DNA of 64,000 bases, taken from a virus (Duplodnaviria > Caudoviricetes). Location of the stretch: positions 17,664 to 81,663 of the IMG/VR virus record IMGVR_UViG_3300027782_000065, one strand, 5' to 3'. The notes beneath the pieces were generated by a model, which did not search any database, was not told where the DNA came from, and saw only the letters and a program-made list of their open reading frames with translations. Below are positions 17,174 through 55,605 of this stretch, in pieces. Position 1 is the stretch's first letter. Every line of letters starts with the position of its first letter. Position numbers and translations under genes: made by a program.

Positions 17174-19610
17174 TTGGTTGGATTATTCTATTATTTACCA
17201 GTATAGTTTTCTGATTTGGATCTCCAGTATTTAATCGGGAAGCAATCATATTACCATCTTTACCTACAGTTCTAATTGATGCATTGCCACCATAATTACG
17301 GTAATTTTCTGGTGGTTGTTTATTTTTATAATATTTAAGATCGTTTAAAAGTTTCTTTAAAGTTTCTAAATTATCTTTATTCTTAACATCAACATTAATA
17401 TCCCATAAACCCAAGACATCTAAAGCTCCCAATGGACCTTTTTTCTCAACTTTTAGATTGGTGCCATCAAGAGTTAATGTATAAGGACCCAATTGTAATA
17501 TATCTTTCTTAAGATCTTGCATAGTATGAACAATTTCAGTCAATGGAGGAAGATTTTGTTTTGCTACTTTTGGGGCAGTTTTGTTTGCACCCAGATCTTC
17601 CAAAAATTTAACTGGATTCACTGTTCCTGCATATCCATAAGTTGTAGATTTACCTTTTCTAATTTCATAATGTATTACCCCGGTTGCAGATAATCCCTGT
17701 ACAACTTTATCTCCAGGATTAACCGAATCTCCTTTTTTAACTAAAACTTGTCTTCCTTCGGCAATTCTTTCAGTCACATTAAGTTTTGAATTATAAATGT
17801 CAATATAATTTCCATATCCTTTTGGAGATGGATCAAAATCCTTATAAGTAACTACTCCACCAATTCTACTATAAAAGTAGTCATTTTCACCTATTGGAAA
17901 ATCAACACCAGCGTGTTGTCTTTTTTTACCGTCTTTACCTATTCTTTCGGCACCATATTGTTGACCAGATAAATTTCTTTCTGGAAGTGGGGGAAGTTTT
18001 CTTTGACTTACTTTAGTAATTGCTTTTGGAAGCTTACCTTTGTATTTTTTATAAAAACCTCTTGCATAATTTTGACGCTTTGTAAGACCATCGCTTGCTA
18101 CCTCATATTTTTCATACCAAATTTGAGCTGCCTCTTCAGGAGTTTTTGCATTTTTAATCTCATTATAAGCAGTATTATAACTTCCTTCCAATTCGACCCA
18201 AGTCCATTCCAATTGAGTGTCAATATTTTCTGGATCGTATTTCTTTTTCTTGGCCCATTTTACCAATTGACCCCATCTATCACCATCACCACCATTTCCC
18301 CATTGAAATATTCCAATAAATTTGCCACCATTTCCTCTTTGAGAATGGGCAATCGTTGGATTAAATCCACTTTCTTGTTGAGCATTTCCCATAATTCCCG
18401 AAACAGCGATATCAGATAATTTTTTCCCCTTAAAGAAATTCCAAACTCTGTCGGCACCTTGTCCTTCAAAAACTGTTGCTCCCTCAAGTCCACCACCTCC
18501 ATTACCATCTCCAGTATCATTAGGATTTCCTCTATCAGTAGCATTTCCACTTTTATCATCTTTAAGTTTTGATTTTAACTTATTAACTGCTTTCAATCTT
18601 TCTGTAATATCTTCAAATTTATTAGTATTTTCCTCACTCATCTTAGTGTTTCTTTCCGAATTTTTAGTATTCTTATTAAATGCTCCAAAATAATTGACAG
18701 ATTGAACTGCCTTTCTTCCTTTTGCAGTCCCACCAGGTCTAGCAAATGGTGAGGTTGCAACTGTTGATGTTCTTGTTTCTGGTCGTGCTGAAGTTCCCAC
18801 AGCATTTGATCTGGAACTAGATACAGTGCCACCAGAAGCAAGTTTTTGCTTTGGTCTTTTCTGTTGTTGTATTGATGTAATTTGTTGTTGGGCACCATTC
18901 ATAACTTGAGGATTTTTTAATGCTGTTGCATAATTTGCATATGTTTTTCCAGTTGTGCTCGAATAATATTTTCCTTTACTTTTAGCATATGCTTGTGCCG
19001 CAGTTGCAGATGCTGCTGTCGATGGTTTTGCTGTTGGTTTTGGATTAAAGAATGAAGTCCATTTAGTAATTAAATCTTTAATTTCTTTTTCTGAGTTATT
19101 GTATAAATTACCCAAACCATCAATTTGTTTTTTTATATCTTGAGTGGTTTTAGCAATAGTGGCATAAGTTCCTCCAGCAAATTTGGAAAAATTATTAACT
19201 AAATCAATAAATCCCAGTATTCCCTTTCCAATTGTTTTAATAGTCCATTCAATAGTCTTAAGAATCCAAGGATTATTGCCAAAAAATTTCTGTAGTCCTG
19301 CAATAATTTTGGGAAGATTATTCACCAATAATCCAAAAACAATAATTGTAAGAAATTCCTTTATCTTATCAAGAATACTCATTGGACCAGCAATTAGTCT
19401 TTGTTTGATATTAGATCCTATGGATTTAATTTTCTCTAGAGGACTTTCAATCTTATTTTCCTTTTCATTTTTTTTATTTTCACTTTCTTCTTTGGAGAAG
19501 AAACTTTTTCTATCCGATCTTATTTTCTTAGATTGCTTGCCATAAGAAAACAAAGAACTCTTTATATTAGTAACGTTTAGTTTTAATTTTTTTAATTCTG
19601 TAGTTTTCAT
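17157..19610 (-). CDS. tail/baseplate protein with phage tail lysozyme domain and M23-like peptidase domain
   Basis: AVSGIMGNAQQESGFNP..GIFQW (Phage_lysozyme2-like); HAGVDF..GYGNYIDI..IHYEIR (M23-like). Confidence 0.7.
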   Translation of the reverse strand: MKTTELKKLKLNVTNIKSSLFSYGKQSKKIRSDRKSFFSKEESENKKNEKENKIESPLEKIKSIGSNIKQRLIAGPMSILDKIKEFLTIIVFGLLVNNLPKIIAGLQKFFGNNPWILKTIEWTIKTIGKGILGFIDLVNNFSKFAGGTYATIAKTTQDIKKQIDGLGNLYNNSEKEIKDLITKWTSFFNPKPTAKPSTAASATAAQAYAKSKGKYYSSTTGKTYANYATALKNPQVMNGAQQQITSIQQQKRPKQKLASGGTVSSSRSNAVGTSARPETRTSTVATSPFARPGGTAKGRKAVQSVNYFGAFNKNTKNSERNTKMSEENTNKFEDITERLKAVNKLKSKLKDDKSGNATDRGNPNDTGDGNGGGGLEGATVFEGQGADRVWNFFKGKKLSDIAVSGIMGNAQQESGFNPTIAHSQRGNGGKFIGIFQWGNGGDGDRWGQLVKWAKKKKYDPENIDTQLEWTWVELEGSYNTAYNEIKNAKTPEEAAQIWYEKYEVASDGLTKRQNYARGFYKKYKGKLPKAITKVSQRKLPPLPERNLSGQQYGAERIGKDGKKRQHAGVDFPIGENDYFYSRIGGVVTYKDFDPSPKGYGNYIDIYNSKLNVTERIAEGRQVLVKKGDSVNPGDKVVQGLSATGVIHYEIRKGKSTTYGYAGTVNPVKFLEDLGANKTAPKVAKQNLPPLTEIVHTMQDLKKDILQLGPYTLTLDGTNLKVEKKGPLGALDVLGLWDINVDVKNKDNLETLKKLLNDLKYYKNKQPPENYRNYGGNASIRTVGKDGNMIASRLNTGDPNQKTILVNNRIIQPIVVSA

Positions 19611-34060: not shown

Positions 34061-34089
34061 ATTATAAAGGATTTAGTTTCAAATGTCAA
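34061..34089 (-). promoter_or_regulatory. sigma70-type early promoter
   Basis: TTGACA (34089-34084), 17 nt, TATAAT (34066-34061): perfect consensus. Confidence 0.85.
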
Positions 34090-34930
34090 TCCCCATATTT
34101 CTAAAAATATCCAATACTTCATCATAAAAACATGAATGACCTTTATATTCATCAATACTAAAGTGCTTGCTCGGCCATTCAAAATCTATGACATCTTTTG
34201 GAAAAGATAAAAATGCTTTGGTAATTGTTTGAATGGATACATCTTGAGAATGATACCAATAGATGGCACCATCATACAAAGACTTATCAGGTGTTAAAAT
34301 CAAATTATTAATCTCATCATTAAATTTAGCACAGTAGTGAGCACCAATATAAGTTTCTGTTCTTATAAAATGATTATAATATTTGTGCAGATGTTGTTTA
34401 GTAACTTTGATTTGATCTATCAATCCATATTTTTCTAAGGGAATATCAAAAAGGTCAATTAGGTCTTCAGTATAACCCCAGAAAATATGGTCCCTAGGGG
34501 AAAAAAGCAAATTGAGAAAAATACCGGCAACGAATATTCTACCTTTGGGTTTATTCTGATCATATTGATATGAAGAAACTTTATCCTTATTCATCATAAA
34601 AAAATCAAACATTTTCATCATACTATCGTATGTGTATTTTTGATCAGATCTCATCTTCACAGAATACATTGTATTTGATTTTTTTAATCCTTGAAGTGAT
34701 GAATAAATTTGAAGATTTCTATTATCAGTTCCTGGAGATTCTGGGTACTCATTTATTACAAATTGGACTCTATCGGAAAAATATTTTGGATAGACTGGAC
34801 CTTTATTATCTTCCCAACAGGAAACAATAATATCATTTACACAAGGTATATTCAGATAAGACTCAATAATCTGATCCGAATACTCATCATATTTTCCTTG
34901 AAGGATTATATTTACTTTATCTTCAATCAT
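34079..34930 (-). CDS. WavE-like lipopolysaccharide/glycan synthesis protein
   Basis: IILQG..IIVSCW..NRNLQIYSSLQGL....VKMRSDQ..F.PRDHIFWG..E.YIG. Confidence 0.7.
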   Translation of the reverse strand: MIEDKVNIILQGKYDEYSDQIIESYLNIPCVNDIIVSCWEDNKGPVYPKYFSDRVQFVINEYPESPGTDNRNLQIYSSLQGLKKSNTMYSVKMRSDQKYTYDSMMKMFDFFMMNKDKVSSYQYDQNKPKGRIFVAGIFLNLLFSPRDHIFWGYTEDLIDLFDIPLEKYGLIDQIKVTKQHLHKYYNHFIRTETYIGAHYCAKFNDEINNLILTPDKSLYDGAIYWYHSQDVSIQTITKAFLSFPKDVIDFEWPSKHFSIDEYKGHSCFYDEVLDIFRNMGIDI

Positions 34931-37900: not shown

Positions 37901-38371
37901 TCAAACAATTTTTTTATAAAACAAAGGTTTATCGGTACAAATACCATAACTGTTTTTTATATATTCAATTCCGTGAGGAAAACTGTACAATGAAATACTT
38001 TCAGGCAAAACAATTACAGATTTTGAATATGGATATTGACCAACCAACACCCAACCAATGCCTTTACTTGTTAAGGTATAACGATCAGTTTCGTGCCAAA
38101 AATAATTAAATGCGGTTTTAGAAAATTCAGAAAGTGCTTCTAAATTTTTACAATGAACCCATAAATTTTCCCTATATTGACTTAACCAATACAAACTGAC
38201 AACATATTGTGGTTCATCATGCCCCAAATAAAAACACTTATCTTTATTATCATAACGCACATCAATCTCCACATCAAATCCTTGGGATAATGCTTCTTCA
38301 ATATATTCTGGACTATTTTCCCTCAGTGGATTAGGTCCATTGAGATTTCCACGATGAGAAATAATTTTCAT
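37901..38371 (-). CDS. glycerophosphodiester phosphodiesterase-like (GDPD/PLC fold) protein; start MKIISHRG at 38371
   Basis: ISHRG..ENS....AL..GFDVEIDV..LGHD..WVHCKN. Confidence 0.75.
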   Translation of the reverse strand: MKIISHRGNLNGPNPLRENSPEYIEEALSQGFDVEIDVRYDNKDKCFYLGHDEPQYVVSLYWLSQYRENLWVHCKNLEALSEFSKTAFNYFWHETDRYTLTSKGIGWVLVGQYPYSKSVIVLPESISLYSFPHGIEYIKNSYGICTDKPLFYKKIV

Positions 38372-38372
38372 A

Positions 38373-39611
38373 TCAAAACTCCAAAATCCATTCGGGGAGA
38401 GATCCACCACCAGTTTCATATCCCCATTTATCTATGGCGGCACGAAACTCTGGTCCAGGGGTTTTATCAATTGCCTGTCTCATTGCCAGAGCACCTGCCA
38501 GAGTGCCCTCAGGATGCCCGTGAATGGCACCTCCACAGTTGGCAAGGAAATCTGTACCAAACTTCTCTGCTGTGGTATTAACGATGCCTGGATGCATCCC
38601 ACAACTCAATGCTGGAAGTACATTGCGATTATGAAGTGTTGCAAGAGTTTGACGAAGTTCATTCTCATCATCACTCAGATAACCACCCCACATTCCAGCA
38701 TGAATCGTATCAACACCCATCAATCCGGCAAGATCACAAATCACATCCCAGTCTATTCCAAATGCGTGGCGTTTATCGGTAAGAATTTTGTCGCCACTCT
38801 TTTGAAAGTGTTGAAACATCGGTAGATCAAGTCTACGAATAGAGTTATAAACACCCAAACCACTCCAAAAATTAATATGGATACCGTTTCCACCATTATT
38901 AGAAACGAACTTAGCCCTTTCAAGAATCGTGTGGTGATCCCCATTAATACAGAACGCATAGATTACATTCCTCCCACAGTTATTCACAATATTTGAAATC
39001 AGTTCTACACGATCTTCAAGACGGCAGAACGATGGATTTGCCAGAATCTCATCTTCCTTAATGAAATCTACACCACCATCAAGAAGTTCTTTCACCATCT
39101 CAGAAAGAGTTTGTGGCGAAATACCAGTCTTTGGTTTTACAATAGCACCAGAAAGTGGTTTGTCATAACGATTTACAAACTTACGGATTCCATCAATACC
39201 ATACTTGGGTCCAAGAAACTGTGCTTCCACATCAGCAGGGAATTCAAGTTTCTGAAGACGACAAGATTTGAATACATCAATATCTAATTGACCTCCCATT
39301 ACCTGACAAAGAAGATGAGAAATACCATCACCTTCCCAATCTGTATTTACTTTAGGAAAACCAATTTTTACTACACCTTCTGTGAGTTGTGAGAGTTCAT
39401 TTTCATCTGCGTAGATAACACAAGATGATAGTTCAAACAGTTCATCGTTTTCCCAACGATTACGAACTTTTGGATTACCCACACTCTGCCCAATAGCAAG
39501 ATTCCAAGCAGCATCACGAAGATTGCCAACATTGGAATATGATTCAATATAATATGTTGCTACTACACAACGTTCTCTTTCTTGATCTGTTAGTTCTCTA
39601 AAAAATTTCAT
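38373..39611 (-). CDS. RuBisCO-like protein (form IV RLP), not a bona fide carboxylase
   Basis: IVKPKTG, GGVDFIKEDE, SCGMHP, GGAIHGHP motifs; positions equivalent to K334, H294 and N123 appear substituted. Confidence 0.9.
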   Translation of the reverse strand: MKFFRELTDQERERCVVATYYIESYSNVGNLRDAAWNLAIGQSVGNPKVRNRWENDELFELSSCVIYADENELSQLTEGVVKIGFPKVNTDWEGDGISHLLCQVMGGQLDIDVFKSCRLQKLEFPADVEAQFLGPKYGIDGIRKFVNRYDKPLSGAIVKPKTGISPQTLSEMVKELLDGGVDFIKEDEILANPSFCRLEDRVELISNIVNNCGRNVIYAFCINGDHHTILERAKFVSNNGGNGIHINFWSGLGVYNSIRRLDLPMFQHFQKSGDKILTDKRHAFGIDWDVICDLAGLMGVDTIHAGMWGGYLSDDENELRQTLATLHNRNVLPALSCGMHPGIVNTTAEKFGTDFLANCGGAIHGHPEGTLAGALAMRQAIDKTPGPEFRAAIDKWGYETGGGSLPEWILEF

Positions 39612-39934
39612 TGATCAACCTCAAACTTATCTCCAGGAATAGATGGAACTTTAACTACAACCACAACACAGTCTTCTAAAAATACAGGATTTGCAACTTC
39701 ACCTTTTTCAAAAACAAACACATCTCCAGAGTTAAGTTCTTTACTCTGAATAGTCATTTTACCCTGCACAAGAACATTATATTCTACACTTTCTTTATGA
39801 TAATGGGGTGCCCAATATTCACCTTTTTGGTGAGTAAGAACACCGACTTCAAAATCTTTAGTTCTCAAAAGTGATGGTTCAAAGTCTCCAATAAACCATC
39901 CACGATGATAATCCTTCAATTGAGTTACATTCAT
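39608..39934 (-). CDS. cupin-fold protein (sugar epimerase/isomerase-like)
   Basis: RGWFIGDFEP..FEVG....KGE..PHYH..VEYN..GKM. Confidence 0.75.
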   Translation of the reverse strand: MNVTQLKDYHRGWFIGDFEPSLLRTKDFEVGVLTHQKGEYWAPHYHKESVEYNVLVQGKMTIQSKELNSGDVFVFEKGEVANPVFLEDCVVVVVKVPSIPGDKFEVDQ

Positions 39935-40644
39935 ACTTTACGAATAAAATTTTCAAGATCTTCAGGTACTCCAACAGGATTATGTTGCCAGGATGGAATA
40001 TGATGAATGCCAACTTTTAATCCAGCACCAATCATATGATTATATGTTGGTCCGACATAAAATTCACCATTCGGTGCCCTATCATTACATTCTATCATAT
40101 TTTCCGTACTTTGTACAAAGTATTTCCCCTTTCTCCAATAATGAATCCCATTCAATGATATATCACTTATGACTTGCTTTTCTTTAATTTCTTGCACAAA
40201 TCCATTTTTATCAAGTCTAGCATAACTATTTTTTGGAGTGTCTGTACTATAAGTAACAACTAACCCATCATACTTATAATACCTAGCAGTTGTAAGAAAC
40301 AGATCTGCATCCCACCACATAATTTGATCACAATTTGCAATCACCAATTCCTCTTCACTATTAATAAAATCTTTAAATAAAAGACAACTTGAGGCAGGAC
40401 CTTCTGTAGTTTCTTCTACGCTAATAATTTTTGCCGATGGGAGAAGTGAATGTAAAAGAGTACAGACCTGATCATAGTAACTATCTTTTCTAATTACAAA
40501 GTGATAAGTTCCCACTAATCCTAACGATTGTATTGCTCGTTGAATCATAGGAATTCCATCAATTTCTATTAATGGTTTTGGAATTTTATAGGTATCTCTG
40601 GGAAATCTAGTCCCTTCACCTGCCATTGGAATTAAAATATTCAT
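39931..40644 (-). CDS. sugar-phosphate nucleotidyltransferase (NTP_transferase family)
   Basis: ILIPMAGEGTRF..PKPLI..T.GPA.S..IANCDQ..EFYVGP.YN..G.PEDL. Confidence 0.85.
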   Translation of the reverse strand: MNILIPMAGEGTRFPRDTYKIPKPLIEIDGIPMIQRAIQSLGLVGTYHFVIRKDSYYDQVCTLLHSLLPSAKIISVEETTEGPASSCLLFKDFINSEEELVIANCDQIMWWDADLFLTTARYYKYDGLVVTYSTDTPKNSYARLDKNGFVQEIKEKQVISDISLNGIHYWRKGKYFVQSTENMIECNDRAPNGEFYVGPTYNHMIGAGLKVGIHHIPSWQHNPVGVPEDLENFIRKV

Positions 40645-41456
40645 TCCTTAAAAGAGTATGTTAATTGATATACTAGATTATGGAAATCATCAGAGATGAA
40701 TGGAGTTTCACATTCTCCAGTCAAATAATAATTATAATACCTTTTTATGGATTCTTCCAAAGGATCACTACCTATAATAATTTCAGTACCTTCAAAATTA
40801 ATAGTATTAAAGGTATTAGATTCTATTATTTTTTCATCTACAATAAATCTAGTATAAGTTTTATTTGAAAATCCAAACTCAAAAGTAATATTTTTATTAT
40901 CCAAAATAAATTTTGATTTATAAATGGTAGTGCTTACTTTTTCAACAGAATGTAACGTAACATCATCCAATTCAAGTGATTTTAAAATACAAATCATGTG
41001 AGGTAAAAAATCTTCCAATATGGTCAATTTTCTATCAACATAATTAGCAGAAAAAAATTGAATATCTAAATTTAGAAAATTATTAGGTATAATTTCTTTA
41101 ATTTTTTTTATTTTTGATGAATTATACCAAAGGTAATTTACATAAGGATTATTTTTATACGAATTTTTTTTATTTTTAATATTAAAAGGTTTTTCAACAA
41201 AAACTTTTTTATTAAAAAGTGATATTATTTCATGATGATATAAAGGTCCAGTAAGAATAAAAGTTGGTAAATTTTTATCAACCTCTTCTATAAGATTTCT
41301 TGTAAGTATATTTTTACAATTTACAAAAACATCTTTCTTATCGGTAACTAAATTTTGAATTTGATATCCACTTGATTCTAATTTTTTTGCAACTCTAGAT
41401 CCCCAATTCCCATACCCAATGATGTTAATTGGAATATCACAATTAAAACTATCCAT
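40641..41456 (-). CDS. Gfo/Idh/MocA-like oxidoreductase
   Basis: IIGYGNWG Rossmann motif; VFVEKP; DFLPH. Confidence 0.6.
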   Translation of the reverse strand: MDSFNCDIPINIIGYGNWGSRVAKKLESSGYQIQNLVTDKKDVFVNCKNILTRNLIEEVDKNLPTFILTGPLYHHEIISLFNKKVFVEKPFNIKNKKNSYKNNPYVNYLWYNSSKIKKIKEIIPNNFLNLDIQFFSANYVDRKLTILEDFLPHMICILKSLELDDVTLHSVEKVSTTIYKSKFILDNKNITFEFGFSNKTYTRFIVDEKIIESNTFNTINFEGTEIIIGSDPLEESIKRYYNYYLTGECETPFISDDFHNLVYQLTYSFKE

Positions 41457-42294
41457 TAGTAACCTCGTTTAAATATTCATTAACTTCTCTTGGTAAAATG
41501 TCTGCCATCCAGTTTCTCATTCCACCAAAATATCTATTTAATTTATGAGCAAGTGCCCCACCTGCTTGATGTAAAACTTTAATATGCATTATATCATTAG
41601 TCACTGGATCGTTCAAATATAGTTGATTGTCCTTAATATACATCTGCTTCCAACTTTGCCAAGGATCATATTCTGGTCCCCATCCATTGTTGATTCCATA
41701 AGATAAATTACTACCTATTGGATCAACAATTTCAGAAGTATACTTGTTAGAATGAAAAATTAAATTTAAAACCCATTGTTCGTCAAGACATTGCTCAGGT
41801 TTATCTGAAAAATAATGATTAACATCATGCCAGTGATACCAAAATTCTTTATTGTTAGATGCCAAAAGTCCACCACAAACATATTTTTGCGTTGGTATAA
41901 TATCCCCATTTCCGAATGGGGGATGGTGGGGAAGTTGAGTTGGAGACCATGCTTGTGCCAAATTAAAACTATTATAACATCTAGAACTTATAATATCAGC
42001 ATTACTATTAAACAACTCATCCATCGGACCTGTTATGGTTGAATCAGCATCCATATGGATCACCATATCATAATTTTCAATAAATGGGATACAACTTGGG
42101 GGAGTCATCCACTTATTTTTTTTTGGTTCTATCCATGAATATTTTCCATATACTTGATTACTCATTTCTGTATTAAAAATAATACAATCAACTTCCGGAT
42201 GAAAATATTTAATTGAATTGATTAATTTATTTACACCCAAAAAATCTGCATAGTCATCAGTACACCAAGTTGTAATAAGAATTTTTTTACTCAT
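41449..42294 (-). CDS. putative glycosyltransferase (GT-A fold)
   Basis: IHMDAD DxD motif; CGGLL; DEQWVLN; VLHQAG. Confidence 0.6.
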   Translation of the reverse strand: MSKKILITTWCTDDYADFLGVNKLINSIKYFHPEVDCIIFNTEMSNQVYGKYSWIEPKKNKWMTPPSCIPFIENYDMVIHMDADSTITGPMDELFNSNADIISSRCYNSFNLAQAWSPTQLPHHPPFGNGDIIPTQKYVCGGLLASNNKEFWYHWHDVNHYFSDKPEQCLDEQWVLNLIFHSNKYTSEIVDPIGSNLSYGINNGWGPEYDPWQSWKQMYIKDNQLYLNDPVTNDIMHIKVLHQAGGALAHKLNRYFGGMRNWMADILPREVNEYLNEVTNG

Positions 42295-43003
42295 AATCTA
42301 GAATTACTTCGATTGTTTTTGTATTCATATAATTCTTGAGAATTTTTGCATTTGGAATAACACAATGACCTCCAATTTTTTTAGTTGGATAAAGAACTGG
42401 TCTAACCACATTTTCTTTTCCTAATTTTATATAACCTTCATTATACGATTGATTATAAAGAGTCATAACTTCTTCAAAATCAATCTCTTCATTTTTACAA
42501 AGATTTGCAACATCAGAATGAAAAGCAATGCACATCCCATAATAAGTTGTATCTAACAGTTTAGCATATTCAGTTGTCTTACTATCTTTGCAAATATGAC
42601 TTCTAATTCCAATACTATCTAAATGCTTTTTATATAGTATGGCGGAATTATCATCTTCTGGTCCAATATATTTCAAAAAAGTTTTCATACCCAAATCAAG
42701 ATTAGGATGCAATCCCCTCATAGGTGAGTGACAAACTTTACCACCAATAAGTTTAGTTGTTCCAGGAGAAACAGTGGAGTGAATGATTGTATAGTTTGGA
42801 TTTGCTTTTGCAACATATTCTTTAACAATATCCACAAAGTTATCGATGGATGGAATACAAATATTAAGTATTTCAACTCCATTAATATCATCATCAAAAT
42901 TTTGAAATGGATCTACTACTCTAATATCAAATCCACCAAAAGATCTATACACTTTTGCAATGCTGCTACCAATTTCTCCATGTCCAATGATTCCGATTTT
43001 CAT
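42287..43003 (-). CDS. UDP-glucose/GDP-mannose dehydrogenase family protein (no C-terminal domain)
   Basis: IGIIGHGEIG; IIHSTVSPGTT; EYAKLLDTTY; IGGHCVIPN with catalytic Cys. Confidence 0.8.
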   Translation of the reverse strand: MKIGIIGHGEIGSSIAKVYRSFGGFDIRVVDPFQNFDDDINGVEILNICIPSIDNFVDIVKEYVAKANPNYTIIHSTVSPGTTKLIGGKVCHSPMRGLHPNLDLGMKTFLKYIGPEDDNSAILYKKHLDSIGIRSHICKDSKTTEYAKLLDTTYYGMCIAFHSDVANLCKNEEIDFEEVMTLYNQSYNEGYIKLGKENVVRPVLYPTKKIGGHCVIPNAKILKNYMNTKTIEVILDYE

Positions 43004-43980
43004 CAAACACAAACTCCATTAATATAGTATTCTACCACTTCTTGAATAACTTCGTCAACCCCTTTAGTCGGACTCCACCCAAGCCTTTCTTTAATTTTTT
43101 CACTATCGGGAATTTTTTCCGGTGCTTCTGCAAAAAGTGGTCCATGAAGATCTATTGGATCAACATGAAGAATTTTTGATTTAGTTTGAGTCATTTCTTT
43201 AACTTTTTCTGCAAGGTAAAGAATTGTTCTTTCATTATTTTTATTACCAATATTCCACTCCTCATTCCAATCAGAATCATTAGCAGTGGAAGCAAGATAA
43301 ATTCCATCCACAATATCTTTAACCCAAGTGAATGCTCTCAACTGCAGACCATCATAATAAACTGTTATGTCTTGATTGTTTAATGCCTGATTAACAAATC
43401 TAGGAAGAACAAATCCACCATTAGGAAGTTGATATTTACCAGTGACATTAAATGGTCTGATAATCTGATATTTAAAATCAGAGTCAATTTTTGCATGATT
43501 CGTTAAAACAATTTCAGATAATAATTTAGCAACTGCATATTCATTTCTAACAGTAAAATCACCATGAAGAACTTTATCACTCTCTTCTTTCAAATAACTT
43601 TTACCGTCCCTATGTCCATAAATTTCTGAAGTAGAAATAAATATTAAAGGACATTGATTATACTTGGCAGTATTAATTGCCCAGTAAATATCATCTAAGA
43701 TAATTCTTGCCATATTACCAGAGTGTTTTAAAACACCCACAGGTCCTACAGGAGAAGCAAGATGAAGAACTAAATCAAATTTGGGTAAAGATTTATAATC
43801 AACATCTAAAATATTTTTTCCAATAACATCAACATCTTCAACCAAATGATAATCTGTAGGTATAGCATTTGTAGATAAATTATCTATGACACAAATGTCC
43901 CAACCTTCAGATTTCCATTTTTCAATGCAGTGTGCTCCAATGAATCCTAATCCACCAGTTATTAATATTTTTTTATTCAT
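43003..43980 (-). CDS. NAD-dependent epimerase/dehydratase/decarboxylase (extended SDR)
   Basis: ITGGLGFIG; FISTSEIYG; YAVAK; RPFNVTG; RAFTWVKD. Confidence 0.9.
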   Translation of the reverse strand: MNKKILITGGLGFIGAHCIEKWKSEGWDICVIDNLSTNAIPTDYHLVEDVDVIGKNILDVDYKSLPKFDLVLHLASPVGPVGVLKHSGNMARIILDDIYWAINTAKYNQCPLIFISTSEIYGHRDGKSYLKEESDKVLHGDFTVRNEYAVAKLLSEIVLTNHAKIDSDFKYQIIRPFNVTGKYQLPNGGFVLPRFVNQALNNQDITVYYDGLQLRAFTWVKDIVDGIYLASTANDSDWNEEWNIGNKNNERTILYLAEKVKEMTQTKSKILHVDPIDLHGPLFAEAPEKIPDSEKIKERLGWSPTKGVDEVIQEVVEYYINGVCV

Positions 43981-48507: not shown

Positions 48508-49247
48508 TTAGGAAGGTATAAATCTTTAGTATTCCAGTTGGATAAAGATCCATTTGGAGAAAACCAGTTTTTAGGAGCAATAGTTTGTTTGCTATTTGCC
48601 AACCAAGATCCCCACCAAGAAAATGAAGAGTTGGCAATAATATGATAATCACAAAGAGACATCAAGCAAATATCATAAAAAGGATCTTGAAATGGAGAGA
48701 TGATAAATGGATCTGTTTTAAATACATTTTTACACCACTCCGGATCATCACTAAAAACTATCACTGGAAAGTTTGGTAGAAGTTTTAATGCGTTCCAATA
48801 ATAATCAAGTGAAAGGCACTCAAAATTTGGATCGCTAGTATAATCACCTCTTCTAATATGTAGTGATATTATTTTAGTGTTTATAAAATTATTTTTGTAA
48901 GACAAACATTCTTCAAGTATTCTATCATGAAAAGTAAAGTCTTGTCTAATTTGTTGCTCTATGTGCTTAAAATATTTTTCCGATTGAAAGTATCCACACA
49001 CATCAACATCATCAGGGCAATTATTAAAAAACTCCTCATCAAATTCAAACTTTTCTACATTCACAACACTATGATTGTTATTGGACAATGTTTCTGGTAT
49101 TTTAAAACATTGACTCAAAGAAGTATTTGATGGTACAGAATACCAATATCCTTTGTGTGTTGCTATTCCTTTAACTCCAGCATACTGAAACATTTGGTTT
49201 CCCAAATATCCAATATATCCCATATTATTAAATGATATCATTACCAA
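48492..49247 (-). CDS. GT11 alpha-1,2-fucosyltransferase-like protein
   Basis: GYLGNQMFQYA; GYFQSEKYF; SLHIRRGDY; FSDD; IIANSSFSWWG. Confidence 0.9.
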   Translation of the reverse strand: MVMISFNNMGYIGYLGNQMFQYAGVKGIATHKGYWYSVPSNTSLSQCFKIPETLSNNNHSVVNVEKFEFDEEFFNNCPDDVDVCGYFQSEKYFKHIEQQIRQDFTFHDRILEECLSYKNNFINTKIISLHIRRGDYTSDPNFECLSLDYYWNALKLLPNFPVIVFSDDPEWCKNVFKTDPFIISPFQDPFYDICLMSLCDYHIIANSSFSWWGSWLANSKQTIAPKNWFSPNGSLSNWNTKDLYLPNWIII

Positions 49248-49996
49248 TTCACCAAATCAGGATACCAAACTTTTCTAAAATCTTGTCCATTATTAATTCT
49301 AACTGGAAAGTCAATTCTATTTGGAACTAAATTCATATTTTTTAAATGTAACTTCAACATCCTTTCAGGATAATATTTAATTGATTGCATATAATGAAAA
49401 TTATTATAAAGATTGGAATACAAATTTATCGCATGAGAATTTCCAATAGCAAATTGATCATTAATTGAATCATCACCCCAATCTTCCCCAGAAGGAATGT
49501 TTAAATTAGGATCTAAGAAACTAATATCTAAAGATTGGTATTTAAAATCACTATCAGTTCTCATTCTAATTACCCAATCAAAGATCATATTATTTTCTTT
49601 CTCATATTCCTTTTTAAGTTGATTTGCTTTGTATATCGAATAATACATACTGATTGGTCCCACATCAAGTCTTGGACATTCGTCTTCCGAATCTGTTGAA
49701 GGAACAAATTTTAAAGTACTTAAAAGATTTTCAAATTTTTTTTCACACTCATCATAATTTTCAATCAAAAGTTTTTCATAATTATAATATTCCAAAGAAG
49801 ATAAATTAGTCTCAACAGTTTTATCTACTTCTTTATGGTCTAATCCATGTAAAGTTTTTACAAATGCAGATCTATCTTTTATCTTCCATGTATGAATGAA
49901 TACTTTTACATATTCATTTGGTATAATTTTTCGAATACTTTGAAGGCCTAAATGTGGATATCTGACTCCCCCAGAAATACAAACCGCTATTTTCAT
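49241..49996 (-). CDS. glycan-island protein, putative glycosyltransferase
   Basis: KIAVCISG..VFIHTW..SMYYSI..FDWVIRMRTD..INDQFAIG..PE..L..HL. Confidence 0.55.
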   Translation of the reverse strand: MKIAVCISGGVRYPHLGLQSIRKIIPNEYVKVFIHTWKIKDRSAFVKTLHGLDHKEVDKTVETNLSSLEYYNYEKLLIENYDECEKKFENLLSTLKFVPSTDSEDECPRLDVGPISMYYSIYKANQLKKEYEKENNMIFDWVIRMRTDSDFKYQSLDISFLDPNLNIPSGEDWGDDSINDQFAIGNSHAINLYSNLYNNFHYMQSIKYYPERMLKLHLKNMNLVPNRIDFPVRINNGQDFRKVWYPDLVNW

Positions 49997-54232: not shown

Positions 54233-54952
54233 TTATCGAGAAGCATCAAATGCACATTGAGAGCGTTGTCCATCAGCAAGAACATAATGAAAAAAGACTT
54301 GGTGATAATAAAGTCCTTCTTTTTCTACTCTTTTTCCATACCAAGTTCTCTTATATTCAGTTGGCATAAAATCTCTCCAATGAGGTCTTTCGCACCCCTT
54401 ATAAATCATTCCATCACCAACAGATAAAATTACAGAACGATTTTCACCTTTTTTTGAGATAATTGTTTTATTTTTATCTGTATATGTATCTGGAGTTTTA
54501 ATCCATATAGGCCAAGGTTCTTTGAGATTTGTACTGATATGAACTGTCACCGAAATTTCACAAGCATCACGATCTGCGTGACGTGTTAATTCTTGTCCTG
54601 GAAAATAAAAACGATCATAATAATAAGTATTATAAAGTTTTCTTCCAAGAATTTTTTCTAATTTTAAACGAACACCCGAATGAATTGAACGATATTGTGG
54701 ATGCCAGTAACAAGCAAGAGACCCTTCCACTTGCTGTTCTAATTCATAATGAGTAAATTGATCTAATTTTTTACCCCAATAATTAATTTGTCCTCTTTCA
54801 TCTGAAACAGGACGATAAAGTTCTTGGGAATCCCATAAGTTTTTTACAACTAAGTATCCATCTTTATCAAATTGTTCGTTACGAGTCCAAGTAGTTCCAG
54901 TGTTAAGTCTCTCTTGGTAGAAGAGTTGCTCTTCTGTCATTTGTTCTGCCAT
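54233..54952 (-). CDS. 2OG-Fe(II) oxygenase-like protein (start MAEQM at 54952)
   Basis: RFY..GQEL..HADR..CEIS.T....GDG.IYKGC..PHWR..QVFFHYV. Confidence 0.75.
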   Translation of the reverse strand: MAEQMTEEQLFYQERLNTGTTWTRNEQFDKDGYLVVKNLWDSQELYRPVSDERGQINYWGKKLDQFTHYELEQQVEGSLACYWHPQYRSIHSGVRLKLEKILGRKLYNTYYYDRFYFPGQELTRHADRDACEISVTVHISTNLKEPWPIWIKTPDTYTDKNKTIISKKGENRSVILSVGDGMIYKGCERPHWRDFMPTEYKRTWYGKRVEKEGLYYHQVFFHYVLADGQRSQCAFDASR

Positions 54953-54953
54953 A

Positions 54954-55574
54954 CTATTTCCACCTCGGACCAACAACCCATCCAACAAGACTCTTACGAG
55001 TTCCCTTTGTAACTTTAAGAACCCGATGTTGAGTTCGAGAATCAAAAATAATTACAGTCCCTCTTTTTCTTGGTGCAAAATAAGACTTTCCATCTTCTGC
55101 AAGAAGTTGAAGATTTCCACCCTCATAATCATCAGGGTCTGAAAGTTGAACTACAAAGGAAAGTTTTCTGACAAGTTCTAAATTCTCATTTAAGTAATCC
55201 TGTGCTCTTCCTTCGTGATGATTTCCAACAGAAACTGGTTTATAATGACCCGCAATACCAGCATCATTATGCCACCCATAAAATTCACCCTCATCATATT
55301 GAGTGAATTGCATAGATTCACCGTCAATATTTCTTATATCGTAAAGAAAATTTTCACGATTTGCTCTTTCTACATAATGCCAAACAAATCCCGCAGTCCA
55401 ATGACTTGTTGGAATCCAGGCATTTTTTGAGTTTCTTTTATCCCGATTAAGGGCATCTCCCATAAGTTTGGAGTCCCCCATTTGCGATTGAAACTTATCC
55501 GTTAAATCTTCTTCTATTGTTCTTACAATTTTTTCTGGAATATCACTGAAATGCCAGATTGACTGGAATGCCAA
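54954..55574 (-). CDS. 2OG-Fe(II) oxygenase (PKHD/prolyl-hydroxylase-like), TTG start
   Basis: QFTQY..FYGWHND..RKLS....LS...YEGG.L..GT.IIFDS...HRV..VTKG.RKSLVGW; AGGAG SD. Confidence 0.85.
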   Translation of the reverse strand: MAFQSIWHFSDIPEKIVRTIEEDLTDKFQSQMGDSKLMGDALNRDKRNSKNAWIPTSHWTAGFVWHYVERANRENFLYDIRNIDGESMQFTQYDEGEFYGWHNDAGIAGHYKPVSVGNHHEGRAQDYLNENLELVRKLSFVVQLSDPDDYEGGNLQLLAEDGKSYFAPRKRGTVIIFDSRTQHRVLKVTKGTRKSLVGWVVGPRWK

Positions 55575-55605
55575 ATCTCAATCTCCTTATAATTTATTCA
55601 TCACC

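Follow-up and report, generated by a model that had tools for sequence, protein, structure and literature searches.

The cassette and its four genes

The window analysed here is a stretch of 64,000 nucleotides (nt), positions 17,664 to 81,663 of the IMG/VR record IMGVR_UViG_3300027782_000065, an 81.7-kb viral contig that CheckV estimates to be ~38% complete. Our subject is a cassette of four co-directional genes on its minus strand which encode, read along that strand, a nucleotidyltransferase (237 aa, 39931-40644; PF00483), a metal cupin (108 aa, 39608-39934; recognised by its fold and an HxH..E..G motif), a form IV RuBisCO-like protein (RLP; 412 aa, 38373-39611; PF00016) and a small protein of GDPD-type fold, hereafter mini-GDPD (156 aa, 37901-38371; assigned by the GDPD motif and the fold). 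The transferase/cupin and cupin/RLP junctions are 4-nt overlaps, while the RLP stop codon TGA (38375-38373) is followed after one base by the ATG at 38371 (M-K-I-I-S-H-R-G-N) that starts the mini-GDPD. The list of open reading frames (ORFs) extends this last frame to 37901-38419, but all homologues begin at the 38371 start (alignment A1), and for this reason we regard the 1-nt gap and the product of 156 aa as correct. The coupling of the four genes by 4-nt overlaps or a 1-nt gap, already noted in a preliminary description of this DNA, is evident in both the ORF listing and the sequence. No convincing terminator was detected on the coding strand inside the four-gene block, and the next strong one follows the WavE-like gene (34079-34930; PF07507, E 7.6e-11).

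The cassette is embedded in a glycan island of ~17 kb (~34.1-51.0 kb) in which nearly all genes are densely packed on the minus strand. Glycosyltransferase (GT) domains of the island comprise GT2, GT25, GT11, GT17 and WavE; the island further encodes an SDR epimerase/dehydratase, a truncated protein resembling UDP-sugar dehydrogenases and four methyltransferase domains. The PF07507 match and these glycosyltransferase and methyltransferase neighbours bear out the earlier placement of the cassette inside a glycan island and near a WavE-like gene.

The RLP matches PF00016 (RuBisCO_large; E 1e-43, 150 bits against a cut-off of 30.1) and the form III structure 2cwx (E 6.8e-41), and this homology, together with lost carboxylation residues and a kept metal site, places it in form IV of the RuBisCO superfamily. 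In our own mapping of residues on the alignment with the Pyrococcus horikoshii form III enzyme (spinach numbering), it retains K175, K177, the carbamylated K201, D203, E204, H327, S379, G381, G403 and G404 and carries the substitutions T173I, H294Q, R295K, H298D, K334Y, N123G, E60G, T65N and W66P. Both the Lys-carbamate/Mg site and the P1 phosphate site are intact, with the carboxylation residues replaced. Across 27 diverse family members, down to 36% identity, the invariant residues are K159, K161, K185, D187, E188, Q270, Y311, S336, C337, G338, G360 and G361, and the family also keeps an SCG motif, a GMxGGY loop and an N-terminal GQSVGNPxVR loop. Two of the replacements, Q270 (equivalent to H294) and Y311 (equivalent to K334), are thus themselves invariant, and the equivalent of H327 is less than 90% conserved. 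The residue mapping and this family-wide signature indicate one conserved, non-carboxylating and Mg-dependent activity of the enolisation type on a phosphorylated substrate; with the metal site and P1 loops kept, the protein should bind and enolise a phosphorylated carbonyl compound.

Named members of the superfamily were considered for the RLP and rejected. Bona fide RuBisCO of forms I-III fails on score (TIGR03326, 196 bits against 497; NF003252, 190 against 438) and on the replaced K334, E60, N123, H294 and R295. The MtnW enolase (NF007095, 173 bits against 409; TIGR03332, 131 against 514) and the 3-oxo-isoapionate-4-phosphate decarboxylase OiaX/OiaC (NF042437, 155 bits against a cut-off of 700) likewise stay far below their cut-offs. 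The window RLP is 64-67% identical to Pelagibacter proteins. Its gene has a GC content of 0.41 compared with ~0.30, but GC at third codon positions is only modestly higher (0.27 compared with ~0.18), and the elevation comes mostly from amino-acid composition.

The transferase falls within PF00483 (NTP_transferase; 33.3 bits against a cut-off of 21.2) and phrog_3980 (E 3.8e-56), with an N-terminal loop MAGEGTRF at residues 7-14 that contains the G-x-G-T-R nucleotide loop. Its nearest solved structure is 4evw, an uncharacterised NDP-sugar (nucleoside diphosphate sugar) pyrophosphorylase from Vibrio (E 1.2e-11). It is a short version that lacks the HAD domain fused to the same type of transferase in phages without an RLP. 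The named equivalogs RmlA, GalU, GlmU, MurU, HddC and IspD/TarI were all rejected, the best being TIGR01208 with 39 bits against 320 and IspD giving no match.

The cupin belongs to phrog_24762 (E 1.8e-31), and Pfam cupin models remain below their cut-off (22.7 bits against 27). Metal motif 1 is intact (H44-x-H46-x4-E51-x6-G58) and the motif-2 histidine is absent; H44 and E51 are invariant and H46 occurs in at least 90% of the sequences of alignment A2. The AlphaFold2 (AF2) model is confident (pLDDT 96.7), and its Foldseek matches are small cupins, among them the archaeal phosphomannose isomerase 7zvm, KdgF and putative sugar-phosphate isomerases. Membership in the cupin superfamily follows from the double-stranded beta-helix fold and the metal motif G(x)5HxH(x)3-4E(x)6G.

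The mini-GDPD has no Pfam match and belongs to phrog_34507 (E 1.1e-33). Its HRG/EN/ExD/HD motif is complete, with H6, R7, G8, E18, N19, E35, D37 and H51 invariant in the 27 sequences of alignment A1, and the profile built on this alignment aligns to the N-terminal catalytic motif of the GDPD 7e0v (E 1.2e-4). The AF2 model (pLDDT 95.5) finds only GDPDs among its top Foldseek matches, with TM scores of 0.5-0.6 normalised by query and 0.35-0.45 by target. The initial assignment of this small protein as GDPD-like was therefore correct. Measured against the GDPD superfamily (PF03009), it possesses the motif but neither the full-length barrel of ~240 aa nor a sufficient Pfam score. As judged from motif and model, it is a truncated, compact derivative of the GDPD barrel, a classification that does not imply glycerophosphodiester activity.

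Conservation across viruses and cells

Relatives of the RLP were found on 227 IMG/VR contigs, and 80 of these RLP-encoding viral loci were fetched (RLP identity 57-94%). Nearly all of the 80 share the order transferase-cupin-RLP, and in most of them the mini-GDPD adjoins the cassette or lies a few genes away. A scan of one genome per prokaryotic species added 40 cellular loci, from SAR11 (including a complete Pelagibacter chromosome), Woese-, Pace-, Nano- and Micrarchaeota, Verrucomicrobia, Elusimicrobia, Azospirillum oleiclasticum, Turneriella, three Legionella species, Tatlockia, Francisellaceae, Balneola and Sphingobacteriales. Gene orders in cells are shuffled (RLP-transferase, RLP-cupin-transferase or GDPD-transferase-RLP), yet the RLP keeps a transferase as its neighbour, and this adjacency is retained in SAR11, DPANN, Legionella, Francisellaceae, Azospirillum, Elusimicrobia and Verrucomicrobia. 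Once the sequences were dereplicated at 90% identity, 27 of the 31 viral and 28 of the 30 cellular clusters have a transferase at most 500 bp from the RLP, the exceptions being mostly cut contigs or loci with a methyltransferase gene between cupin and RLP. The preliminary description had set co-occurrence elsewhere as the test on which its cassette should stand or fall, and with RLP-transferase adjacency in 55 of the 61 clusters the cassette stands. As these genes are found together again in more than 100 independent loci, the arrangement is not due to chance.

Fusions tell the same story. RLP, transferase and cupin are joined in one chain in two proteins of 813 and 817 aa (P0121 and P0122), the former encoded at L129:6001-8442 on a contig that also has Pox_VLTF3 and P9_TM genes. 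The poxvirus-type VLTF3 gene marks this contig as giant-virus-like, and the cassette thus appears to have reached giant viruses of eukaryotes. In a Micrarchaeota locus (L101), a transferase-GDPD fusion of 505 aa stands beside RLP-transferase, and here the GDPD part does reach the Pfam model (30.5 bits against 23.6).

The neighbourhood is one of glycan synthesis. Glycosyltransferases, O-methyltransferases, SDR epimerases and DegT aminotransferases surround the cassette in the window and its relatives, with SDR family 6 alone in 20 viral and 10 cellular loci. In four Legionellaceae loci (L119, L121, L122 and L123; e.g. L121:4261-6538 of Legionella nautarum), a LicD phosphotransferase gene divergently adjoins RLP-transferase; the flank further encodes a protein of 323 aa without known function and a carboxymuconolactone-decarboxylase-family protein of 113 aa, and has neither cupin nor mini-GDPD. 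LicD was also considered as a universal partner and rejected, being confined to Legionellaceae. The biosynthetic rather than catabolic setting proposed at the outset is consistent with all these neighbours, LicD in Legionella included. On the grounds of synteny, fusions and glycan neighbours, there is good support for a functional link between the RLP and nucleotide activation in the synthesis of glycans.

Two additions to the cassette were observed. In one phage subgroup (L021:5330-6004, and likewise L022, L025, L026, L042 and L064), a gene of 224 aa sits exactly between cupin and RLP; judged by eye from its translation it resembles class I S-adenosylmethionine-dependent methyltransferases. 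In another viral locus (L008), a Methyltransf_24 domain is fused ahead of the mini-GDPD, and from both cases it seems that O-methylation recurs as a fifth function of the cassette. In Azospirillum oleiclasticum, the full four-gene cassette (L117:6771-9568) is followed by CysD-like and CysN/CysC genes, which convert sulfate to 3'-phosphoadenosine 5'-phosphosulfate. The position of these sulfate-activation genes directly after the cassette hints at a sulfated glycan in this species.

A possible alternative feeder in related cassettes

Cultured cyanophages (Synechococcus phages B3, B23, DSL-LC03 and S-PRM1) carry the mini-GDPD after a HAD-transferase fusion and have no RLP. Among 54 viral mini-GDPD loci fetched with the B3 protein as query, 27 encode the HAD-transferase fusion without RLP, nine encode RLP and transferase without HAD, and only one has both; a tenth locus with RLP but without HAD is cut at the contig end. 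Conversely, the HAD domain was seen in a single one of the 80 RLP-centred viral loci. This domain aligns over its full length with the beta-phosphoglucomutase family, and in a quick tree the HAD-fused transferases group with cupin-less, SAR11-type transferases adjacent to an RLP (SH-aLRT 94). The simplest reading of these gene contents is that transferase and mini-GDPD form a common core that can be served by two alternative feeders, either a mutase-like HAD domain or an RLP, usually together with the cupin. From the near mutual exclusivity of RLP and mutase-like HAD domain we infer that the RLP would act before activation, as a supplier of phosphorylated substrate.

A proposed pathway and its weak points

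On balance we think it probable that the four genes constitute a conserved biosynthetic cassette, from which the island's glycosyltransferases and O-methyltransferases would receive an unusual sugar, or sugar-like unit, activated by a nucleotide. The RLP would enolise a common ketose phosphate and thereby shift or epimerise its carbonyl, comparable to the Rhodospirillum RLP with methylthioribulose-1-phosphate, and the metal cupin would complete an isomerisation of the aldose-ketose type. RLP and cupin would in this way fill the role that the beta-phosphoglucomutase-like HAD domain has in the sister cassette, namely delivery of a phosphorylated substrate. The transferase would couple the resulting phosphate ester to a nucleoside monophosphate, giving an activated unit NDP-X that methyltransferases and glycosyltransferases would then use for a glycan made in the infected cell. 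The mini-GDPD would handle a donor-linked phosphodiester, either reopening a cyclic phosphate from a labile NDP-sugar or processing a phosphodiester of the glycan.

Feeding of this pathway by Calvin-cycle intermediates of the host, as suggested earlier, is unlikely as a general answer, given that SAR11, Legionella, Azospirillum, DPANN archaea and giant-virus-like contigs also have the cassette. With heterotrophs, DPANN archaea and, apparently, viruses of eukaryotes among the carriers of the cassette, the substrate is more likely a universal metabolite, with an intermediate of the pentose-phosphate pathway ahead of one specific to the Calvin cycle. A bolder version, to which we give only a small chance, takes RLP and cupin as a phosphomutase-independent route to a glycosyl-1-phosphate, with a ketose 1-phosphate, an NDP-furanose and recovery of a cyclic phosphate along the way. 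The RLP would walk the carbonyl of a pentose-phosphate-pathway ketose 5-phosphate (or of a hexulose or heptulose phosphate) to yield a ketose 1-phosphate, in the reverse sense of the Rhodospirillum rubrum RLP reaction. The cupin would close this product to a furanosyl 1-phosphate, the transferase would convert it to a labile NDP-furanose, and the mini-GDPD would recover the 1,2-cyclic phosphate that such donors shed.

Several observations weigh against a dedicated nucleotide-sugar cassette of four genes. The transferase stays below all NCBIfam equivalog cut-offs, with sugar-1-phosphate transferases as best matches (E 1e-10), and the sequences reveal no substrate, product or nucleotide specificity. 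The cupin gene is missing in the Legionella loci, in most DPANN loci and in one SAR11 type, and is thus not obligatory. The mini-GDPD family comprises at least 1331 clusters at 50% identity, far more than the RLP, so that the claim of a four-gene unit stands for its conservation in glycan loci of phages and cells but not for a mini-GDPD specific to the RLP. Fusion partners of this protein include DUF7796, WavE and GT61 domains as well as O-methyltransferases; because of these fusions, a role at the polymer level is favoured over reopening of a cyclic phosphate or precursor salvage, and the mini-GDPD may act on the glycan polymer and not on a soluble cyclic phosphate. The transferase tree comes from a quick search and is partly unsupported, and the HAD and RLP cassettes may make different products instead of one product by two routes. 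Finally, the LicD gene of the Legionella loci points to a donor of the phospho-alcohol or sugar-phosphate kind and not to a classical glycosyl donor.

Alternative explanations

The order of steps might be reversed, with the transferase first activating an ordinary sugar phosphate and the RLP, together with an RmlC/FdtA-like cupin, then enolising an NDP-ketosugar whose diphosphate occupies the conserved P1 site, the reaction being an epimerisation or keto-isomerisation. Cupins of nucleotide-sugar pathways indeed act after activation, SDR dehydratase/epimerase genes are frequent neighbours (the family 6 loci counted above; 43003-43980 in the window), the Gfo/Idh/MocA-like gene overlapping the transferase gene could make the keto intermediate, and the RLP-transferase-cupin fusion leaves the order of steps unconstrained. 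No enzyme of the RuBisCO family is known, however, to act on a nucleotide-linked substrate, the cassette has no dehydratase or oxidoreductase as a universal partner, and a step before activation accords better with the way in which RLP and mutase-like HAD domain almost exclude each other; we therefore regard the reversed order as unlikely. About as improbable in our estimation is a CDP-type activated polyol or ketose phosphate (cf. CDP-ribitol and CDP-xylulose/arabinitol) that would be transferred as a phosphodiester decoration and trimmed or remodelled by the mini-GDPD. Cytidylyltransferases for ketose-5-phosphates and ketose-6-phosphates exist in pneumococcal and Campylobacter capsule pathways. 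The LicD-family gene beside RLP-transferase in the four Legionellaceae loci, the fusions of the mini-GDPD to what are polymer-tailoring enzymes (WavE, GT61, DUF7796 and O-methyltransferases) and its intact GDPD catalytic set would suit such a decoration. Against it, the window holds no LicD, Stealth or CDP-alcohol transferase, the weak matches of the transferase are to sugar-1-phosphate enzymes and not to IspD/TarI, and the beta-phosphoglucomutase-like partner in the sister cassette suggests a sugar-1-phosphate.

Two further explanations would sever the RLP from glycan synthesis. RLP and cupin might form a salvage or catabolic module, of the methionine-salvage/methylthioadenosine (MTA)-isoprenoid-shunt or apiose-catabolism type, that has come to lie in the island by accident. 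This would agree with the characterised RLPs, which to our knowledge all work in salvage or catabolism, and with the pairing of RLP and cupin in the R. rubrum shunt. Yet no mtnA, mtnK, mtnB, mtnP or apiose genes were found near any of the ~120 loci, all-against-all clustering of the 1727 ORFs from all loci revealed no context of the methionine-salvage type, and the scores with the MtnW and OiaX models fall far short of the cut-offs (173 bits against 409 and 155 against 700). Adjacency to the nucleotidyltransferase is moreover kept across domains of life and reinforced by domain fusions, leaving accidental salvage genes very improbable. We see next to no chance that the RLP is a true carboxylase adding to the carbon fixation of the host during infection. 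The retained K175, K177, K201, D203 and E204 speak for it, but K334 is an invariant tyrosine, N123G, E60G, T65N, W66P, H294Q and R295K affect further positions, neither the window nor the fetched loci showed a phosphoribulokinase gene, and the cassette is present in heterotrophs.

Relation to described systems and wider significance

Known RLPs are enolases or isomerases of phosphorylated ketoses, such as MtnW and the 1,3-isomerase of R. rubrum, which is paired with a cupin. The name IV-GOS in Tabita et al. 2007 presumably denotes the RLP groups from Global Ocean Sampling (GOS). Yooseph et al. (2007; PMC1821046) described these marine groups with substitutions at N123, H327 and other active-site positions and without known function, and proposed neither a function nor a gene context for them. 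Jaffe, Castelle, Dupont and Banfield (2019; PMC6389311) reported ‘Form IV-like’ RLPs on ~80 IMG/VR and groundwater phage scaffolds and in Beckwithbacteria; some of the phage scaffolds are Myoviridae of ~200 kb, and the RLPs lack several catalytic residues and were left without an assigned function. In the text of that article which we consulted (PMC6389311), the RLP is treated alone, in terms of carbon metabolism and gene transfer, with no mention of a transferase/cupin/mini-GDPD cassette, a glycan context or fusions. By source (a myovirus-like contig from IMG/VR) and residue pattern, the window RLP very probably belongs to this set. The gene family is known but has no assigned function, and a function of the kind proposed here would be new. 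No RLP turned up when 50,697 GenBank phage records were searched with tblastn, and in the open-access literature we found neither a description of the cassette nor a paper linking an RLP to glycans, which is not proof of absence.

The closest biochemical likeness is the MTA-isoprenoid shunt of R. rubrum, which pairs an RLP with a cupin (PMC6302742). There the RLP (5-methylthioribulose-1-phosphate 1,3-isomerase) and the cupin (1-methylthioxylulose-5-phosphate methylsulfurylase) work on a phosphorylated pentulose, and the migration of the carbonyl by successive enolisations offers the best mechanistic analogy for the cassette. However, the shunt serves salvage; MTA phosphorylase and an isomerase feed it, and its end product is 1-deoxyxylulose 5-phosphate. 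The cassette, by contrast, lacks those genes, lies in glycan loci and is coupled to a nucleotidyltransferase. The window cupin also shows no specific similarity to the methylsulfurylase beyond the fold. The HAD-transferase cassette of cyanophages is a nearer relative in composition, sharing the transferase family, the mini-GDPD and a glycan island of the Kyanoviridae type, but it has no RLP and carries the mutase-like HAD domain in its place. A third likeness is found in the GDP-D-glycero-alpha-D-manno-heptose pathway (GmhA, HddA, GmhB and HddC), where a HAD enzyme and then an NTP_transferase-family enzyme act on a sugar bisphosphate and then a 1-phosphate. A Pelagibacter HAD-transferase fusion even adjoins an SIS_2 gene and a GT9 heptosyltransferase gene, reminiscent of that pathway. 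The heptose pathway nonetheless differs, since the HAD domain here is of the beta-phosphoglucomutase type and not GmhB, similarity to HddC is marginal (E 0.0018) and an RLP is absent from it.

If the proposed biosynthetic function holds, an RLP branch that builds activated sugars would be new chemistry for a heavily studied enzyme superfamily and would provide a function for the unexplained RLPs known from ocean metagenomes since 2007 and from phages since 2019. Should the route to a glycosyl-1-phosphate in particular be true, the RuBisCO fold would for the first time be seen in an anabolic role other than CO2 fixation, and phages, giant viruses and streamlined cells would have spread this role, leading to diversified surface glycans. 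The cassette sits in hypervariable glycan islands of SAR11 and in cyanophage glycan islands, regions that shape phage-host recognition in the most abundant marine microbes, and for this reason its product may be an ecologically important, chemically unknown surface sugar. Cultured carriers exist with Azospirillum oleiclasticum (strain RWY-5-1-1), which offers a tractable system, and the three Legionella species (among them L. nautarum ATCC 49506), and the proteins are small with confident structure models.

Origin of the contig and neighbouring genes

The stretch with the ferrochelatase and 2-oxoglutarate (2OG)-Fe(II) oxygenase genes (window 54233-55600) is ~70% identical at the DNA level to Synechococcus phages S-SM2 and Bellamy, and its DNA matches are to T4-like Synechococcus phages only. 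Further, the mini-GDPD gene is similar to that of Kyanoviridae such as B3 and DSL-LC03, and from these two affinities a cyanomyovirus is the likely source of the contig.

Upstream of the cassette, an ORF on the minus strand (271 aa, 40641-41456) overlaps the transferase start by 4 nt. Its product has no Pfam, PHROG or NCBIfam match, but a structure search of the ESM Atlas gave TM scores of 0.78-0.83 to GFO_IDH_MocA clusters, and judged by its predicted structure it is probably a Gfo/Idh/MocA-type NAD(P) oxidoreductase. Neither this gene nor the next one upstream (41449-42294), likewise unannotated, has a homologue in the other fetched loci according to phmmer, which places both outside the conserved unit. 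With these two genes, this phage may add a redox step of its own to the pathway.

The UDP-glucose/GDP-mannose dehydrogenase-like protein of the island (241 aa, 42287-43012, minus strand; PF00984, E 3.6e-7) matches the central domain of these enzymes only, is about half the normal length and may be truncated, split or degenerate. The island also holds a DUF7796 gene (49241-49996, minus strand) of a family present in 41 related viral loci. Elsewhere, the same domain is fused behind the mini-GDPD (P0172 and P0192), and for this reason DUF7796 probably works together with the phosphodiesterase.

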